Shown piece after piece: positions 1 through 5,926 of a DNA stretch of 16,218 bases (positions within the stretch are counted from its first letter, which is position 1; the number at the start of each line of letters is the position of its first letter). Both the position numbers and the translations under genes were made by a program. Source of the stretch: a virus; UHGV virus genome UHGV-0099062, one strand, 5' to 3'. Below the pieces are notes generated by a model. It was not told the DNA's origin. It did not search any database and saw only the letters and a program-made list of their open reading frames with translations.

Positions 1-2
1 TT

Positions 3-404
3 ATCTGCATCATCGTCTGCCTGTCATGGGCTGTTAATCATTACCGTGATAACGCAATCGCCTACAAAGAGCAGCGCGATAAGGCCGCATCCACAATTGC
101 TGACATGCAGAAGCGTCAACGTGATGTAGCAGAACTTGACGCCAGATACACAAAGGAGCTTGCTGATGCTAACGCGACTATCGAAAGTCTCCGTGCTGAT
201 GTTTCTGCTGGTCGTAAGCGCCTGCAAGTCGCCGCCACCTGTGCAAAGTCAACGACCGGAGCCAGCAGCATGGGCGATGGAGAAAGCCCAAGACTTACAG
301 CAGATGCTGAACTCAATTATTACCGTCTCAGAAGTGGAATCGACAGGATAACCGCGCAGGTTAACTACCTGCAGGAATACATCAGGACGCAATGCCTGAA
401 ATAA
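3..404 (+). CDS. Rz: Rz i-spanin (lysis), 5'-truncated by window edge
   Basis: Frame 3 is open from the window edge; translation [27 protein letters not shown]...[22 protein letters not shown] closely resembles lambda Rz as remembered ([28 protein letters not shown]). N-terminal TM segment present. The ORF track 105..404 is the internal-Met part of the same frame. Confidence 0.9.
166..351 (+). CDS. Rz1: Rz1 o-spanin, outer-membrane lipoprotein, embedded in +1 frame inside Rz
   Basis: ORF wholly inside Rz in another frame. [20 protein letters not shown] gives a signal peptide with lipobox V-S-A-C, followed by a proline-rich mature region ([13 protein letters not shown]), as in lambda Rz1. AAGGAG lies 8 nt upstream of the ATG at 166. 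The track start at 136 is a TTG; the lipoprotein-compatible start is 166. Confidence 0.8.
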
Positions 405-435
405 TTTTTTTGCAAATCACAAAGTCAATTTAATG

Positions 436-458
436 AGCCTCGCGATGCGGGGCTTTTT
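436..458 (+). terminator. Intrinsic terminator after Rz
   Basis: GC-rich hairpin AGCCTCGC-gat-GCGGGGCT (8 bp including one G-U) immediately followed by TTTTT. Confidence 0.6.
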
Positions 459-465
459 GCAATAA

Positions 466-490
466 ATGCGTACCGCAACGCATGTTTTTT
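466..490 (+). terminator. Second, tandem intrinsic terminator
   Basis: Perfect 6-bp stem ATGCGT / ACGCAT with a 6-nt loop, followed by GTTTTTT. Confidence 0.55.
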
Positions 491-605
491 ACACCGAACC
501 TGCCCCTTTGGAATGGGCCTTTGAGGATACCAGTTAGTGCTGGCGAGCCTCGGTGGGCTGGTTTCCTATGCGGCAAAGGTTCATTTCAAATGGTAGGTAA
601 ACGTT

Positions 606-1127
606 ATGAATATCGTGCCACTTAATTACAAAGGTGAAATTGTCAGTTTCAACACTGATGGTTGGATCAACGTCACAGGTGTTGCTGAGAGATTTGGAAA
701 ACGCATTGATAACTGGATGCGTTTGGCAGAAACGCTTGAATACGTTCGTGCTTTAGACGAAGCGTTGACCGGGAAAGAATCTCAAATTTTACATCCCTCA
801 CAATCGAGGTATGTAAAAACCAGCAAGGCACGAAAGGACAGGGGTGGTGGTACGTGGCTACATCCAAAACTTTCAGTTGCATTTGCCCGTTGGTGTGATG
901 CTCGTTTTGCTGTGTGGTGCGACCTGCACATTGATAGTCTGCTTCGCGGTGAACTGACTGAGCAGCAGAAATATGAGCAAGCATGTCGCATTCGCGATGA
1001 CCGGAAATCAAAAGCCAGCAATGGGGCAAGAGAGATGGCTCGCTGGCGATGGGATAAGCCGGTTATTGAAGCAAATGTTGAGTACTGGCGCGAGCAACTG
1101 CAGTTGACTCTCGATATCGCGTGCTGA
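606..1127 (+). CDS. KilA-N domain protein (phage regulatory / anti-repressor-like DNA-binding protein)
   Basis: 173-aa ORF with the characteristic KilA-N core (...GGTWLHPKLSVAFARWCDARFAVWCDLHID...). Sits between the lysis cassette and the packaging genes, a usual accessory-gene position in lambdoid/P22-like phages. Confidence 0.75.
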   Translation: MNIVPLNYKGEIVSFNTDGWINVTGVAERFGKRIDNWMRLAETLEYVRALDEALTGKESQILHPSQSRYVKTSKARKDRGGGTWLHPKLSVAFARWCDARFAVWCDLHIDSLLRGELTEQQKYEQACRIRDDRKSKASNGAREMARWRWDKPVIEANVEYWREQLQLTLDIAC

Positions 1128-1484
1128 TGGCAAACGCAAAACTGCGTTATCGGAAAAATCAAAGCATTACGAGAACTGAGCAACGGCTATCCATTACAAA
1201 GCCCATCTACGGGTGGGCTTGATAATGAAACCGGAATTTATTCTTGGCAACCAGTTACGGCAGTACCACGAAACAACCCAAGCCAGTAAGTGGGGAAATA
1301 ACACTGGCAGCCACTGAAAGATGAAGCTCCTGCCTTAAGGCAAAAAAGATTCTTTGTGGTGGCGGACTGATGGAAAGACATCGGTTATTGCAGAGACCAT
1401 TCAATGAGTGGTCTCGACAATGACTTATACCCTACACGGGATAACTTAACTGATATCCCTTTTAACGGATAAACGGAGCCAACA

Positions 1485-1727
1485 ATGGCAGAGATTATTC
1501 CCATGACTGAAGAACAGAAATTCCAGTTAGAGATTTACAAGCTGGTCATGAACCAGAACGCAGCCGCAGAAGAAGCATTTCAGTTCATTGGCACTGACGA
1601 GCTGAAGCTTGAGCTATTCAAAATTCACTTCCAGTCAGGTGGCGCTAATTCAGATATCACGACCCGCACTATCGAAGCGGTGCGTAAATCGAAGGAAGCG
1701 TTAGACCTGTTCACCACCGGAGCATGA
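1485..1727 (+). CDS. Hypothetical 80-aa protein immediately upstream of terS (same position as the 80-aa ORF before gene 3 in P22-like phages)
   Basis: Clean 80-aa ORF with a GGAG-type RBS (ACGGAGccaacaATG), co-oriented with and tightly spaced to terS. No recognisable motif. Confidence 0.6.
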   Translation: MAEIIPMTEEQKFQLEIYKLVMNQNAAAEEAFQFIGTDELKLELFKIHFQSGGANSDITTRTIEAVRKSKEALDLFTTGA

Positions 1728-1762
1728 TGCTCAACCTGAAATAACGATTAAGTGAGATGAAT

Positions 1763-2251
1763 ATGGCAGCACCAAAGGGCAACCGATTCTGGGAGGCCCG
1801 CAGTAGTCATGGGCGAAACCCTAAATTCGAATCGCCTGAGGCGCTGTGGGCTGCTTGTTGTGAATACTTCGAGTGGGCTGATGATAACCCGCTATGGGAG
1901 GGTAAGGTATTTTCATATCAGGGAGAAATAATTAAGGCTAATCTTCCTAAGATGCGAGCCATGACTATTTCAGGATTGTGTACCTTCCTTGATATCACCA
2001 GGCAAACATGGGGAACCTTCCGGTCAATGGAAGGTTTTTCTGACGTCACATCACGAGCGGAAGACATCATCTACGACCAGAAATTCTCTGGCGCAGCCGC
2101 TGACCTTCTCAACGCTAACATCATCGCCCGTGATTTGGGCCTCAAAGAGCAGTCGCAAGTTGAAGACGTGACACCTGATAAGGGAGATCGCGATAAGCGA
2201 CGCTCTCGTATCAAGGAGCTATTCAACCGTGGAACTGGACGCGATTCTTGA
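1763..2251 (+). CDS. terS: Terminase small subunit (P22 gene 3 type)
   Basis: [38 protein letters not shown]... is a typical enterobacterial podovirus TerS. Length from the second ATG is 162 aa, the size of P22 gp3. RBS spacing favours ATG 1763 over the track start 1757. The 3' end overlaps terL. Confidence 0.85.
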
Positions 2252-3725
2252 TAACCTGAGCGACGAAGAGCAAATCGAGTTGCTCGAGCTACTCGAAGAA
2301 GAAGAGAACTACCGGAACACACACCTGCTATATGAATTTACGCCATACAGCAAACAGCGTGAGTTCATCGACGCCGGGCATGACTATCCAGAGCGCTGTT
2401 TTATGGCTGGTAACCAGCTTGGTAAGTCATTTACTGGTGCTGCTGAAGTCGCGTTTCACCTTACCGGGCGTTATCCGGGCACAAAAGGCTATCCTGCTGA
2501 TGGTAAATATGGCGGTGAGTGGAAAGGTAAGCGTTTCTATGAGCCTGTTGTCTTCTGGATTGGCGGCGAGACAAACGAGACTGTAACCAAAACGACTCAA
2601 CGCATCCTGTGCGGTCGTATTGAAGAGAATGACGAGCCAGGCTACGGTTCCATACCGAAAGAAGACATCATTAGCTGGAAGAAGTCTCCTTTCTTTCCGA
2701 ACCTTGTTGATCATCTTCTGGTTAAGCATCACACGGCTGATGGCGTTGAAGATGGCATTTCAATCTGCTACTTCAAACCATACTCGCAAGGACGCGCTCG
2801 CTGGCAGGGTGACACAATCCACGGCGTGTGGTTTGACGAAGAGCCACCATACAGCATTTATGGCGAAGGGCTTACCCGTACCAACAAATACGGGCAATTC
2901 TCAATTCTGACGTTTACCCCGCTGATGGGGATGTCTGACGTTGTTACCAAGTTCCTGAAGAATCCCAGCAAGTCGCAGAAAGTGGTCAACATGACCATCT
3001 ATGACGCTGAGCACTACACCGACGAGCAGAAAGAGCAAATCATCGCATCTTATCCTGAGCATGAGAGAGAGGCGCGTGCTCGCGGTATTCCTACGATGGG
3101 TAGCGGTCGAATCTTCCAGATACCGGAAGAGACGATTAAGTGTCAGCCGTTCGAGTGTCCTGATCACTTCTACGTCATCAATGCAATGGACTTCGGATGG
3201 GATCACCCACAGGCACATATCCAGCTTTGGTGGGATAAAGACGAGGACGTGATTTATCTTTCTCGCGTCTGGAAGGCCAAACAGAAGAAGGCGACAGAGG
3301 CATGGAGTGCTGTTAAAGCATGGAGCAAAAACACCCCTACGGCTTGGCCTCATGACGGGCATCAGCACGAAAAGGGAGGCGGCGCTCAGCTCAAGGAACA
3401 ATACGCCGACGCTGGGTTCGACATGTTGCCAGATCATGCAACATGGCCTGATGGAGGTAATGCGGTCGAACCCGGGATAGCAGAGATACGCGACATGATG
3501 CTCGACGGTCGTTTCAAGGTATTTAACACCTGCGAGCCATTCTTTGAAGAGTTTCGCCTGTATCACCGCGATGAGAACGGGAAGATCGTCAAGCTAAATG
3601 ACGACATCCTTTCTGCTGTTCGCTATGGCTACATGATGAGGCGTTTTGCAATACAGATGCGAGACATCAAAGATCCTAAAGAGATTGATTACTCAAGCTA
3701 CAACATACCTTGCGGAGTTGGATGA
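2229..3725 (+). CDS. terL: Terminase large subunit (P22 gene 2 type; ATPase + nuclease)
   Basis: 498 aa. N-terminal ATPase region with a Walker A-like GNQLGKS and a Walker B-like WFDEEP motif. GTG start overlapping terS by 23 nt; AAGGAG 10 nt upstream. Stop TGA overlaps the portal ATG (ATGATG). Confidence 0.95.
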
Positions 3726-5926
3726 TGGCTGATGATAGAAAGATGACTGACTGGCATCGCAAGGTGCTGTGCAACTTTGATAATGCCTGGTCAGCAACGC
3801 AGGATATGCGAGAGCAGATTATTGAGGCTCAACGTTTCGTCCGGGTGTCCGGCGCACAGTGGGAAGGCAGCACAAACGCTGGTTACTCATTTGATGAAGG
3901 CAGGTTTGAGCATTACCCGCGCTTTGAACTGAATAAGATTGCCCGTGAATGTGATCGCATCATTGGCGAGTATCGACAGAATCGCATCAGCGTTAAATTC
4001 AGGCCGAAGGATGACAAGGCATCGGAAGCGTTAGCCGAAAAGATGAACGGCAAATTCCGCGCTGACTATCAGGAAACATCCGGTGGCGAAGCGTGTGATA
4101 ACGCATTTGATGATGCTGTAACGGGCGGATTCGGTTGTTTCCGCATGTGTGCCGATTACGAAGATGAAATGGACCCAAGTAACGAGCAGCGACGCATCAG
4201 CCTTCTTCCTGTTTACGACCCAGCGACATGCGTTTTCTTCGATCAGGACAGCAAGCAATATGACCGCTCTGATGCTATGTGGGCTATGGAAATGTTCTCC
4301 ATGACGCCTAAAGCGTTCGAGGCTGAATACCCTGATTCCATCGCGGCAAGCCTTTCTCGTGATGACACTGGTACTCAGTATGACTGGTCAACGCCTGACG
4401 CCATCTATGTTGGACGCTACTACGAAGTTCGCGTAGAGAAGGTGAAGCTCACAGCATGGCGTAACCCTGTTAGCGGAGAAACGGCAATCTATGATGAAGA
4501 TCAAATCAAAGATATTGTCGACGAGCTGACCGATGGCGCATTCGAACTGATTGGTGAGCGGACAGTGAAGAAACGCCGAGTTTATTGCGGTCTTCTGTCT
4601 GGCGCTGAATGGCTGGAAGAACCGAAGCGTATTCCGGGCGAACATATTCCTCTCATCCCGGTATATGGGCGTCGTTCATTTGTTGATAATCAGGAGCGAA
4701 TCGAAGGCCACGCAGCAAAAGCGATGGATGCACAGCGTCTTGAGAACCTGATGGTTTCCATGATTGCAGATAACGCTACTCAGGCTGGCGGCGATGGCAT
4801 TCCTGTAGTTGATGTTGACATGATTCCTGGTCCTCTTGCCACTCATTGGGCGGAGCGCAACAAAAAGCGCCCGGCGTTCCTGCCGATGGTCAGTCTGAAA
4901 AACAAAAACGGAGATATTACTGCGCAGGCTCAGGTCAGCAGTTATACACCTACAACACAAATGCCTCCTGCTCTTGCCGGGCTATTGCAGTACACCGGAA
5001 CTGCTATTCAGCAAATTACAGGTGCGTCGCAGCTTGAGAACATGCCGAGCAACGTCGCCACCGATACCGTTGATAGCATCTTTAACCGGATGGACACGCA
5101 GTCCTATATCTACATGGACAACATGGCTAAATCCATGCGTCGCGCTGGCGTTGTGTGGCTTTCTATGGCGCGTGAGGTCTATGGCAGTGATACGCCGATG
5201 CGTATCGTTAATGAGGACGGCAGCGATGACGTGGCGCTGATGACTGGTGAAGTGGTTGACCGTCAGACAGGGCAGGTTATCGCGCTTAATGACCTTTCGC
5301 AGGGCAACTATGAAGTGACTGTCGATGTCGGTCAGTCGTTCGCTACTCGTCGTGATGCAACGGTTAAGTCGTTACTTTCCATGCTGGCACTTATCCCACC
5401 AGGAACGCAGAAGCACGACCTTGTATCGTCGATGATTCTCGACAATATGGACGGCGAAGGGATGGACGACCTTAAAGAATACAACCGCAATCAGTTGCTT
5501 CTGTCTGGCGTTATCAAGCCGAGAACGCCTGAAGAACAGCAGATGGTTGAACAGGCGAAACAACAACAGGCCAGTCAGCCAGATCCGGCTATGGTTGCAG
5601 CGCAAGGTCAGCTTCTTGCAGGTCAGGCTGAATTGCAGAAAGCGCAGAACGAACAGGCAGCCATTCAGGTTAAAGCATTCCAGGCACAGACTGATGCTCA
5701 GGTTGCAGCGGCAAACGTTGTGAAAATCCTCGCATCTGCCGATAGCCAGCAGAAATCTGATATCCGCGAGGCTCTGAAACTGCTCGGACAGTTCCAGCAA
5801 CAGCAAGGAGACAATGCCCGTGCTGATGCAGAGCTTGTCCTGAAAAGTCAGGCACAGGGTCATGCGCAGCGAATGGACATCAGCAGCATCCTGCAAAAAT
5901 CAACCCAGCAACAATCACAGCAGTAA
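3725..5926 (+). CDS. gp1: Portal protein (P22 gene 1 family, divergent N-terminal two-thirds)
   Basis: 733 aa from ATG 3725 (GGAG 7 nt upstream; the track start 3710 is a TTG). Shares the P22-portal motif GEHIP.IPV and the C-terminal helical barrel region DPAMV.AQG.LL.GQAEL.KAQN with Q-rich tail. Position directly after terL. Confidence 0.9.
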   Translation: MADDRKMTDWHRKVLCNFDNAWSATQDMREQIIEAQRFVRVSGAQWEGSTNAGYSFDEGRFEHYPRFELNKIARECDRIIGEYRQNRISVKFRPKDDKASEALAEKMNGKFRADYQETSGGEACDNAFDDAVTGGFGCFRMCADYEDEMDPSNEQRRISLLPVYDPATCVFFDQDSKQYDRSDAMWAMEMFSMTPKAFEAEYPDSIAASLSRDDTGTQYDWSTPDAIYVGRYYEVRVEKVKLTAWRNPVSGETAIYDEDQIKDIVDELTDGAFELIGERTVKKRRVYCGLLSGAEWLEEPKRIPGEHIPLIPVYGRRSFVDNQERIEGHAAKAMDAQRLENLMVSMIADNATQAGGDGIPVVDVDMIPGPLATHWAERNKKRPAFLPMVSLKNKNGDITAQAQVSSYTPTTQMPPALAGLLQYTGTAIQQITGASQLENMPSNVATDTVDSIFNRMDTQSYIYMDNMAKSMRRAGVVWLSMAREVYGSDTPMRIVNEDGSDDVALMTGEVVDRQTGQVIALNDLSQGNYEVTVDVGQSFATRRDATVKSLLSMLALIPPGTQKHDLVSSMILDNMDGEGMDDLKEYNRNQLLLSGVIKPRTPEEQQMVEQAKQQQASQPDPAMVAAQGQLLAGQAELQKAQNEQAAIQVKAFQAQTDAQVAAANVVKILASADSQQKSDIREALKLLGQFQQQQGDNARADAELVLKSQAQGHAQRMDISSILQKSTQQQSQQ

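Follow-up and report, generated by a model that had tools for sequence, protein, structure and literature searches.

In phage T4, hairpins that sequester the ribosome-binding sites of I-TevI, mobE, gene e and soc restrict translation from read-through transcripts, and a late promoter within the hairpin lifts the restriction. In Pseudomonas phage D3, the gene for Orf11, the namesake of the ORF11CD3 domain, is co-oriented with and located inside the late (head-tail) operon. Phages P22 and phi80 carry a gene for Rha (ORF201 in P22) directly after the lysis gene Rz. In the part of PMC4936722 that cites Henthorn & Friedman (1995), Rha is described as a late-operon product that impairs phage growth in hosts deficient in IHF. 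P22F, which has its 3′ terminus 6 nt away from the start of rha, is an 89-nt plus-strand sncRNA that is found in infected cells only, was validated by RT-PCR and was represented by 926 and 2054 reads in P22-infected cells and outer-membrane vesicles (Naaz et al., 2026; PMC13397905). The same paper presents it as a new sncRNA that has "no known function" (PMC13397905).

We analyzed a 16,218-nt stretch of virus genome UHGV-0099062 (the window), in which the slot used by rha in P22 and phi80 holds a gene for a KilA-N protein (Table 1). A reading made from the letters and open reading frames alone, the sequence-only reading, had proposed such a gene here. The list of open reading frames contains it, with an ATG start, and a Pfam profile search matched the 173-aa product to KilA-N (PF04383) with E=8.2e-22 and 77.5 bits (gathering cut-off, 23.8 bits), over profile positions 4-106 of 107. 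The KilA-N domain of the product has an alpha/beta fold that is related to the fungal APSES DNA-binding domain. Proteins with 100% identity are present in Emek (YP_006560618), HK544 (YP_007151669) and ev099, and the gene, which is already annotated, is ordinary by itself. That its product stands outside the lysis and morphogenesis machinery, as had also been claimed, was borne out. A search of NCBIfam gave no match, and no nuclease domain was found in the protein. As a candidate member of a defence system, it gave only a weak PADLOC match to PDC-S22, through the common KilA-N domain.

Table 1. Positions of genes, domains and RNA elements at the locus, numbered from the first nucleotide of the window.
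Feature	Position	Strand	Evidence or remark
Rz i-spanin gene, 3′ part; last lysis gene	1-404	+	Pfam Phage_lysis, E=5.4e-35; PHROG 13, Rz-like spanin
Rz1 o-spanin ORF, embedded in Rz	136-351	+	ORF list; lipobox LLVVSAC
T1, intrinsic terminator after Rz	436-458	+	8-bp G+C-rich stem, 3-nt loop, U-run
P0 hairpin	466-483	+	Stem 466-471/478-483, loop 472-477 (ACCGCA); fold and stem covariation
Pseudoknot 5′ strand, CCGCA in P0 loop	473-477	+	Complementary to 569-573; covaries across types
Long irregular hairpin	498-598	+	MFE fold; covariation
Anti-Shine-Dalgarno strand ACCUGCC	498-504	+	Pairs with 592-598 in MFE and centroid structures
P22F counterpart (P22 21301-21389)	512-600	+	Printed sequence, PMC13397905 Table 2
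Asymmetric 3′ bulge AUGCGG	568-573	+	569-573 is the pseudoknot 3′ strand
Shine-Dalgarno region GGUAGGU of the KilA-N gene	592-598	+	AGG 8 nt before AUG; paired in leader fold
CDS, KilA-N + ORF11CD3 protein (Bro-network cargo gene)	606-1127	+	173 aa
KilA-N DNA-binding domain (predicted)	624-947	+	aa 7-114
ORF11CD3 domain (profile-based)	969-1112	+	aa 122-169; predicted helical hairpin
3′ tail of cassette	1128-1191	+	Hairpin 1133-1148 without U-run (fold)
Conserved non-coding block outside cassette	1192-1484	+	P22G-homologous segment 1258-1400; 22-codon ORF 1404-1472
DUF2560/orf80	1485-1727		Downstream of KilA-N gene
terS, gp3	1757-2251		Downstream of KilA-N gene
terL	2229-3725		Downstream of KilA-N gene

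The 50-aa C-terminal tail of the protein, which had been described as free of any recognizable motif, is by profile and homologue comparison an ORF11CD3 domain (PF10549), the module that also ends P22 Rha/ORF201. The 173-aa protein alone scores 16.2 bits (E=0.013), below the 25-bit gathering cut-off. Among 36 aligned full-length homologues, 26 match ORF11CD3 at E<=1e-3 (best, 2e-10), the C-terminal alignment with homologues is nearly gap-free, and precomputed Pfam lists PF10549 for homologues at 99-100% identity. Helices are predicted at residues 118-137 and 141-172. D3 Orf11 has the same two-domain architecture and is 44% identical to the protein over 98% of its length, but its gene lies between head-tail adaptor genes. 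P22 Rha likewise carries a C-terminal ORF11CD3 domain (E=9e-28) and is of similar size (178 aa from ATG); it differs in its N-terminal module, which is Phage_pRha rather than KilA-N. Pairwise BLASTP of P22 Rha against the 173-aa protein gave no significant similarity, the tails included; the kinship of the tails rests on the profile match and on D3 Orf11. The KilA-N protein may act as a modulator that binds DNA and would probably do harm when overproduced. A search for an IHF site as a tie to Rha biology returned one consensus match (1157-1169), which is at chance level.

Comparison of the interval between Rz and terS revealed that a hypervariable slot separates Rz from the packaging genes and that the gene is optional cargo there, replaced or missing in related phages. 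The flanks at 405-597 and 1192-1484 are present in thousands of E. coli prophages, with varied genes between them. In related phages the slot holds Rha, other KilA-N proteins, T5orf172/GIY-YIG-like proteins or, as read by eye, HNH/AP2-like proteins, or it is empty. When loci were anchored on Rz, the families of the first gene were Rha+ORF11CD3, KilA-N+ORF11CD3, KilA-N+P63C, T5orf172/MUG113 and others. This gene starts ~220 nt past an anchor near the Rz end, or ~202 nt past the Rz stop (402-404 in the window), and ~362 nt past the anchor in loci with a 143-bp insertion. Four loci with an empty slot (L033, L059, L069 and L072) lack the equivalent of window ~398-1191, joining ~397 to 1192. The cassette extends over ~459-1191; at its right-hand boundary, ~1188-1192, homology resumes with phages that carry other cargo or none. 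T1 (AGCCUCGC-GAU-GCGGGGCU followed by UUUU) is kept in all phages whatever fills the slot, its core is invariant in the alignment, and the annotations of phages Emek and HK544 list it as a Rho-independent terminator.

Two terminators had been placed upstream of the gene by the sequence-only reading. T1 stood, but the second (466-483) is the P0 hairpin of a leader RNA. Together with the 115-nt spacer at 491-605, which contains no convincing ORF, it forms one conserved structured RNA of ~135 nt (466-598). In the subtype found in the window, P0 is followed by six U residues (485-490), which accounts for the terminator call; most other leader types have no U-run there. In phage late regions, apparent "terminators" made of a hairpin and a U-run, and gaps the size of a promoter, should be viewed with caution, as they can be parts of structured leaders. 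The long hairpin consists of a basal stem formed by the anti-Shine-Dalgarno and Shine-Dalgarno (SD) strands, a ~17-bp middle stem, an AGGA/UCCU stem, a CCAG/CUGG stem and a variable apex that carries conserved GGCG and GGG. Its MFE is -56 kcal/mol (z=-3.9). The pseudoknotted core of the leader comprises an invariant AG.A/U.CU stem, a GUGNGA bulge that pairs with the P0 loop, and the apical GGCG...GGG.

Both the secondary structure and the pseudoknot of the leader are shown by covariation. Six leader sequence types, folded independently, reach one architecture. A first RNAalifold consensus on a plain MAFFT alignment was poor (-4.9 kcal/mol) because the 5′ arm was misaligned, which was solved by folding each type separately and aligning to a covariance model. 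With a model seeded on type A alone, we searched a first set of 89 loci; 63 of them had a single copy, which in every case ended at the cargo AUG. Counted in model-fitted alignments, a choice that leaves the pseudoknot and the independent MFE folds unaffected, compensatory pairs numbered 29 of 46 in this first set, 33 of 46 in an independent set of GTDB genomes from >20 enterobacterial genera, and 41 of 52 in the merged set (67 distinct sequences, >20 enterobacterial genera). In the merged set 87.8% of cells were paired, compared to 34-47% in slid controls, and none of 500 shuffles reached the observed score. The P0 stem covaries between UGCGU/ACGCA and GCGC/GCGC. Although absent from the search model, the pseudoknot was 100%, 96.6% and, in the merged set, 97.7% paired; its center pair is GC, UA, AU or CG in different sequences, and a divergent leader copy has the strands CUGACA/UGUCAG. 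The core RCCU/AGGU pairs were standard in 56/64, 63/64, 60/64 and 59/62 scored sequences. Within the helix, conservation is lowest in the basal anti-SD/SD stem, where gaps or a lack of pairing are common at the outer three pairs; the P22 stem has only ~3 bp.

The structure contains many G-U pairs, and the model gives 180 bits for the plus strand but 18.9 for the minus strand. Thus, the plus-strand RNA is the functional form. In the second set, 34 of 35 matches end at the cargo start codon; the exception (L112:4505-4641) is a decayed copy without a cargo ORF. The leader occurs in the model phages P22, HK022 and HK544, and a covariance-model search of the whole P22 genome found the rha leader and no extra copy. 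None of 4227 Rfam models, including C4, IsrK and phage RNAs, matched either strand of window 1-2400 at E<=1. What lends the locus its interest is its surroundings: a strongly covarying, pseudoknotted leader without an Rfam family stands before interchangeable Bro-network genes. No covariance-model match lies before D3 orf11, where the upstream fold has z=-0.06. Since proteins of the D3 Orf11 type occur elsewhere without the leader, the leader belongs to the slot and not to the protein family.

The P22 rha leader is also type A and is nearly identical to the leader in the window over the hairpin. P22F aligns with the type-A leader except in the last 10-15 nt before the start codon, and is the same RNA element, which spans the long hairpin from its upper part up to and including the SD. 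It differs in that the P0 hairpin and the anti-SD strand lie outside the published RNA. Published data show that this homologous RNA is transcribed from the plus strand and accumulates in P22-infected cells; the conserved fold, pseudoknot, SD occlusion, wide distribution and link to swappable cargo are not part of that report (PMC13397905). An orphan sRNA thereby gains a concrete candidate function. Because P22F stops short of the AUG, the hairpin may be cleaved off the mRNA or act in trans.

An explanation that joins these results is that the slot carries interchangeable cargo on the late-operon transcript and that the leader gates its translation; we put its probability at about 60%. The KilA-N gene would be one of many Bro-network cargos in the slot that follows the lysis genes in lambdoid and P22-like phages. 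The cassette would have no promoter of its own and would be transcribed from the late operon only, by a Q-antiterminated late transcript that reads through T1 (436-458), and the ~135-nt leader (466-598) would set its expression at the RNA level. Pairing of 498-504 with 592-598, as modeled, would occlude the ribosome-binding site and so repress translation, which we propose is low or delayed from the abundant late mRNA. Cleavage of the 5′ arm at a P22F-type 5′ end could then remove the anti-SD strand and free the ribosome-binding site, so that RNA processing would activate translation. In the fold of an RNA that begins at 512, the SD is largely unpaired. The proposed arrangement resembles the T4 hairpins in that the ribosome-binding site of an accessory gene, often one for a nuclease, is occluded in read-through RNA. 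Unlike those hairpins, the leader contains no internal promoter evident in a sigma-70-like consensus scan, and it is bigger, has a pseudoknot and forms a conserved family that precedes unrelated cargo genes. One RNA with many cargos offers a tractable handle on the control of probably toxic DNA-binding and nuclease accessory genes in temperate phages.

A bolder version, which we regard as speculative and rather doubtful, makes the leader a sensing riboregulator of a new class, in which a ligand-bound pseudoknotted core switches the cargo, with the freed P22F as a product that acts in trans. The ligand could be a small molecule or else a protein of phage or host origin, for example RNase III or IHF. 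The leader would then not be a constitutive damper, and the cargo could be any Bro-network gene, whether DNA-binding, anti-repressor-like or nuclease. If this is true, the leader would be a modular "plug-in" expression port for late-operon accessory genes in enterobacterial temperate phages.

The accumulation of the 89-nt RNA in P22-infected cells and outer-membrane vesicles (PMC13397905), together with the high stability of the hairpin, would also fit a gene for a trans-acting sRNA of the P22F type, with host or phage targets and only an incidental position before the KilA-N gene. We consider this unlikely, as the element ends at the cargo start codon and takes the SD of the gene into its basal helix, is missing where the slot is empty, and in L014 moves with cargo to another position in the late operon. 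Roles in trans and as a cis-acting leader can coexist.

Equally unlikely, in our view, is that leader and cargo form a selfish, homing-type mobile cassette, in which the KilA-N/ORF11CD3 protein serves as the DNA-targeting module, perhaps after domestication, and the leader limits expression, in the manner of free-standing phage homing-endonuclease genes. The literature associates Bro-N, KilA-N and T5orf172 proteins both with homing endonucleases and with "Bro gene mobilisation" (PMC8096241; PMC10111431). The leader also stands before T5orf172/GIY-YIG-like proteins and before proteins read by eye as HNH/AP2-like, cassettes occur in tandem in L091 and L112, and L014 has an extra leader copy at another late-operon site, before a 54-aa ORF that appears by eye to be an AP2/HNH-like remnant. 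Against it, the 173-aa protein has no nuclease domain. The idea is compatible with the leader mechanism rather than an alternative to it.

Two further explanations are improbable. In the first, the leader couples translation through a uORF of 17-23 codons that begins at an apical GUG or AUG (in the window, from GUG 537 to UAG 594-596), and the ribosome that reads it exposes the SD of the cargo. Such a ribosome would melt the 3′ arm of the leader. An apical start codon is present in 63 of 67 distinct leaders, with the ORF ending within 20 nt of the cargo start, overlapping it (AUGA) or fused with it. In P22 the uORF is in frame with rha, so that "ORF201" was annotated from its GTG; the leader thus accounts for the mis-annotated N-terminal extension of this protein. 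However, two of the three frames are open across the 3′ arm in most sequences, which leaves the count of uORFs with little power. In addition, L120 and L112b have lost the start codon and read GCG instead, L101 and L116 have none there, the putative SD of the uORF is itself paired, and the peptide is not conserved between types while the base pairing is.

In the second, the gene is a classical moron, transcribed from a promoter of its own in 491-605 while the prophage is repressed, and insulated from the late operon by two terminators. T1 and the hairpin with U6 upstream would suit this, as would the optional nature of the DNA, which lies between genes that are adjacent in other phages. The moron bor occupies the neighboring slot of lambda, and, as in lambdoid morons of the Hendrix/Juhala definition such as bor, the DNA at this lysis/packaging junction is missing from related phages. 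This much of the moron proposal in the sequence-only reading holds; the promoter that it suggested is not supported. A crude consensus scan for sigma-70-like sites detected none on the plus strand of 405-605, and the 115 nt that had been offered as a promoter region are leader RNA, not gene-specific regulatory DNA. By-eye promoter candidates in single leader types (TTTACA-N17-GAATGG; TTTCAC-N17-TATTAC) were poor and not conserved between types. Only ~7 nt separate T1 from P0, which leaves no space for a promoter there. The constraint on 466-598 as RNA, in both arms and through the P0-loop pseudoknot, implies a transcript that begins upstream of 466. An identical leader type also stands before unrelated genes. 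The GC content of the gene (0.42-0.52) is not atypical when compared to its flanks (0.43-0.55), and, unlike in lambdoid morons, no promoter/terminator pair was detected and the gene points the same way as the late operon. No hairpin-plus-U-run terminator was found downstream of the gene, where the hairpins at 1133-1148 and 1199-1220 lack U-runs. The sole terminator-like site near the 3′ side of the gene is on the minus strand. The leader evidence instead points toward expression solely from the antiterminated late transcript.

That the leader is only a DNA "linker" for homologous recombination at a mosaic boundary, with no function as RNA, is very improbable: a linker predicts sequence identity, whereas leader types that differ by ~40% remain paired through 41 compensatory pairs and a covarying pseudoknot, and the G-U pairs give a strand-specific structure. 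What the idea captures is the precision of the swaps, on which the leader system is also informative: cargo is exchanged exactly at the leader/ATGAA junction and at ~1188-1192, and identical leaders stand 5′ of different cargo genes.

The window is the late region of a P22-like (Lederbergvirus-type) phage, with the open reading frame under study lying between the end of Rz and DUF2560/orf80. As the sequence-only reading held, this frame encodes a KilA-N domain: the Pfam profile matches aa 7-114 with 77.5 bits against a cut-off of 23.8 (E=8.2e-22). The 173-aa product is 100% identical to orf173 of Salmonella phage Emek, annotated 'KilA-N domain-containing protein, similar to Orf11 of Pseudomonas phage D3', to gp62 of siphovirus HK544 and to a protein of phage ev099. 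Versions that are ~85% identical occur in further P22-like phages of Salmonella and E. coli, and in each of 138 complete E. coli genomes a single place covers 80% or more of window 405-1484. By itself, the gene is an unremarkable, previously annotated one encoding a protein of unknown function. Its 50-aa tail, in which no motif had been recognized, is ORF11CD3. Although the tail alone matches this Pfam family weakly (aa 122-169, 16.2 bits, E=0.013), three lines of homology identify it: D3 Orf11, the family's namesake, aligns end to end (44% identity, 98% of length); almost every database homologue, those of 99-100% identity among them, has KilA-N plus ORF11CD3 in precomputed Pfam assignments; and ORF11CD3 is found at E<=1e-3 in 26 of 36 aligned full-length homologues.

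The gene occupies a slot filled by exchangeable cargo. Thousands of E. coli prophages share its flanks (405-597 and 1192-1484) around differing genes. In 80 IMG/VR loci gathered via the Rz gene, the gene following Rz begins at a constant distance of ~220 nt past an anchor near the Rz end (~202 nt past the Rz stop), or of ~362 nt when a 143-bp insertion is present. This insertion, between the Rz stop and T1 (the intrinsic terminator after Rz), was seen in a subset of phages: E212 and ~20 IMG/VR loci. Cargos comprise Rha with ORF11CD3 (the P22 ORF201 type and two others) or with another tail; KilA-N with ORF11CD3 (the window, and a different one in O157:H7), with P63C (HK022) or with another tail; a T5orf172/MUG113 (GIY-YIG-like) protein; and an unassigned 198-aa protein. 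Further cargos in other genera resemble, by eye, Bro-N and HNH/AP2 proteins. KilA-N, Phage_pRha and ORF11CD3, the Pfam-assigned cargos, are members of the domain-swapping 'Bro network', and T5orf172/GIY-YIG-like domains have been linked to Bro-N and KilA-N proteins (PMC10111431, PMC8096241). In phages with an empty slot, homology to the window ends at ~397 and resumes at 1192. The right boundary is the same for every cargo type, while the left lies just after T1 where the leader type differs, or at the start codon where the leader is shared and the cargo differs. Thus, the mobile unit consists of leader, coding sequence and a 64-nt tail. Among known proteins, the two nearest relatives are P22 Rha, which shares slot, leader and C-terminal domain with the window gene but has a different DNA-binding head, and D3 Orf11, which shares the domain architecture but has a different genomic context and no leader.

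Features of the window and of related loci (window coordinates unless a locus or genome is named)
Feature	Coordinates	Remark
Rz1 o-spanin	136-351	+1-frame ORF embedded in Rz, as expected; lipoprotein box LLVVSAC
Promoter-like site	401-428	minus strand; TTGACT-16-AATTAT; directed back into Rz
Rz stop	402-404	
T1	436-458	
Mobile unit	~459-1191	
P0 hairpin	466-483	
Long hairpin	498-598	anti-SD 498-504; Shine-Dalgarno 592-598
Pseudoknot	473-477 with 569-573	CCGCA/UGCGG
P22F counterpart	~512-600	
KilA-N gene	606-1127	plus strand
IHF consensus match	1157-1169	WATCAANNNNTTR; cassette 3' tail
Right cassette boundary	1188-1192	
Conserved non-coding block	1192-1484	
P22G homology	1258-1400	
Terminator-like hairpin, U-run	1327-1346	minus strand; downstream of KilA-N gene
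22-codon ORF	1404-1472	MSGLDNDLYPTRDNLTDIPFNG
DUF2560/orf80	1485-1727	
terS gp3	1757-2251	
terL	2229-3725	then portal gene, remaining morphogenesis genes
143-bp insertion	L004:1905-2080	phage E212
Tandem leaders	L091:3513-3648, 4840-4974	Pantoea prophage
Tandem leaders	L112:3283-3421, 4505-4641	Pantoea prophage
Second, diverged leader	L014:1863-1999	between Q and holin genes
P22F	P22 21301-21389	plus strand
Annotated ORF201 GTG	L003:1554 (P22 21326)	leader apical loop
Probable rha ATG	L003:1623 (P22 21395)	

When aligned, the regions upstream of different cargos fell into several sequence types that are ~40% divergent and keep complementary changes. Separate folding of six types, those of the window and P22 plus four B/C variants, gave one architecture: the short hairpin P0 followed by a long irregular hairpin, at whose base a CCU-containing strand pairs with the AGG of the cargo Shine-Dalgarno. 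The window leader folds at -56 kcal/mol (z=-3.9). A covariance model trained on type-A sequences alone detected a single copy in each of 63 loci out of 89, its 3′ end falling at the cargo AUG every time, and scored 180 bits on the plus strand versus 18.9 on the minus strand. Among 37 distinct sequences, 29 of 46 pairs showed compensatory double changes and 86.7% of cells were paired, compared to ~35-44% with partners slid. An independent sample of 33 loci, obtained by scanning one genome per species for an exact pattern, contained the element in 30 (second covariance model), with 33/46 pairs compensatory and 85.7% of cells paired. These 30 come from ~20 named genera, including Raoultella, Pantoea, Rahnella, Pluralibacter, Citrobacter, Shimwellia, Buttiauxella, Enterobacter, Brenneria and Symbiopectobacterium. 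In the merged set of 67 distinct sequences, compensatory changes occurred at 41 of 52 pairs, 87.8% of cells were paired (34-47% in slid controls), and none of 500 shuffles reached the observed covariation score. We put the probability of a genuine RNA structure at roughly 0.9. A search of Rfam gave nothing for the region at a cut-off as loose as E<=1. The leader is a new and well-supported family of structured RNAs whose general kind, the cis-acting 5′ leader, is known. GTDB metagenome bins assigned to Nanosynbacter, Bacillota, Cellvibrionaceae and Collinsella (L096, L111, L095 and L113) contain the leader within near-identical enterobacterial phage sequence, likely reflecting bin contamination.

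The P0 loop is complementary to an asymmetric bulge of 6-7 nt in the 3′ arm of the long hairpin, and both strands covary: UCGCA/UGCGA, UCUCAC/GUGAGA, UCACAC/GUGUGA, CCCAC/GUGGG and UCGCAC/GUGCGA in other leaders, UUCUCG/CGAGAA in the HK022 type and CUGACA/UGUCAG in the highly diverged L014 copy. Since this pseudoknot was left out of the covariance models, the alignments were not fitted to it; its pairing nonetheless holds at 100% (197 cells), 96.6% (174 cells) and, for the merged set, 97.7%, with GC, UA, AU or CG as its central pair. G-U pairs are frequent and the model scores differ between the strands, which shows that the plus-strand RNA is the functional form.

Cassettes also occur outside the usual arrangement. 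Two Pantoea prophages carry tandem leader-plus-cargo cassettes, the second copy in L112 lacking both P0 and a cargo ORF and appearing decayed. The second leader of L014 (41.7 bits) lies directly 5′ of a 54-aa ORF that by eye resembles an AP2/HNH-type remnant. The tandem and ectopic copies and the nuclease-like cargos suggest a homing-type mobile cassette, which is compatible with a leader mechanism.

A text search with a 22-nt piece of the hairpin located a small-RNA sequencing study of P22-infected Salmonella, in which a novel 89-nt RNA, P22F, was represented by 926 reads from the cytosol and 2054 from vesicles but by no read from uninfected cells, was validated by RT-PCR, ends 6 nt from the rha start codon and was reported with 'no known function' (Naaz et al., 2026; PMC13397905). 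P22F corresponds to the upper long hairpin through the Shine-Dalgarno, and the rha leader is the sole copy of the element that the covariance model detects in the whole P22 genome. The element is therefore transcribed in lytic growth and yields a stable fragment. A trans-acting role for this RNA is possible in addition to a leader role; taken alone, it does not account for why the element joins the start codon at a fixed point, is missing where the slot is empty and, in L014, has moved along with cargo to a different place in the late operon.

Coupling through a leader peptide begun in the apical loop would accord with an apical start codon whose ORF reaches the Shine-Dalgarno or AUG in 63 of 67 leaders. 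Against this, two of the three frames are open in any case, and several genera have lost the start codon. In P22, the GTG annotated as the start of ORF201 is such an apical codon, in frame with rha; the true start is probably the ATG 69 nt downstream, making the 23-codon extension an annotation artefact. Calls of 189-230 aa for the KilA-N protein in some databases may have a similar cause.

The gene had been read as a moron behind two terminators. It is indeed optional cargo, but a promoter of its own is not supported: a consensus scan found no sigma-70-like site on the plus strand of 405-605, and the covarying RNA begins only ~7 nt past T1. T1 stands as a terminator, whereas the second (466-483 plus U6) is the P0 hairpin of the leader, and its U-run is missing from most other leader types. 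That the region is only a DNA linker for recombination is contradicted by the covariation.

The lack of a promoter-like site and the start of the RNA so close to T1 suggest that the cassette is read by Q-modified polymerase, which would pass T1; the gene would thus be expressed late. As long as the leader is intact, its basal helix would hold the Shine-Dalgarno, throttling or delaying translation from a very abundant late mRNA. The P22F 5′ end lies within the 5′ arm, downstream of the anti-SD, and window RNA folded from 512 on keeps the upper hairpin with the Shine-Dalgarno essentially unpaired. A cut there, for which RNase III or RNase E would be the obvious candidates, would detach the anti-SD and open the site. 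Such tight control would suit cargo that is harmful when over-made, as KilA is named for host killing and several cargos are nuclease-like. Rha, likewise, is reported to block phage growth in IHF-deficient hosts (PMC4936722). On balance, we lean slightly toward the leader gating translation. Its conserved unpaired and junction nucleotides (AG.A/U.CU, GUGNGA, apical GGCG and GGG) would allow for a specific protein or ligand as partner. A sensing switch seems rather unlikely. For function, the nearest parallel is found in T4-type accessory and homing-endonuclease genes, whose hairpins sequester the RBS; the parallel is imperfect, as the window element shows no internal promoter, contains a pseudoknot and forms a conserved family.

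Several features lie near the cassette. The exact IHF consensus match, the only one in the window, is not above chance (0.72 expected). The minus-strand promoter-like and terminator-like sites have no obvious minus-strand gene. Downstream of the slot, the second conserved non-coding block is common to phages with any cargo or none, and part of it is homologous to the 3′ two-thirds of P22G, another reported P22 small RNA. The 22-codon ORF, which has no family match, is the counterpart of P22 'ORF25', with a conserved N-terminal MSGLDN.LY. The whole intergenic region (1128-1484) folds far better than shuffled sequences (z=-5.9).
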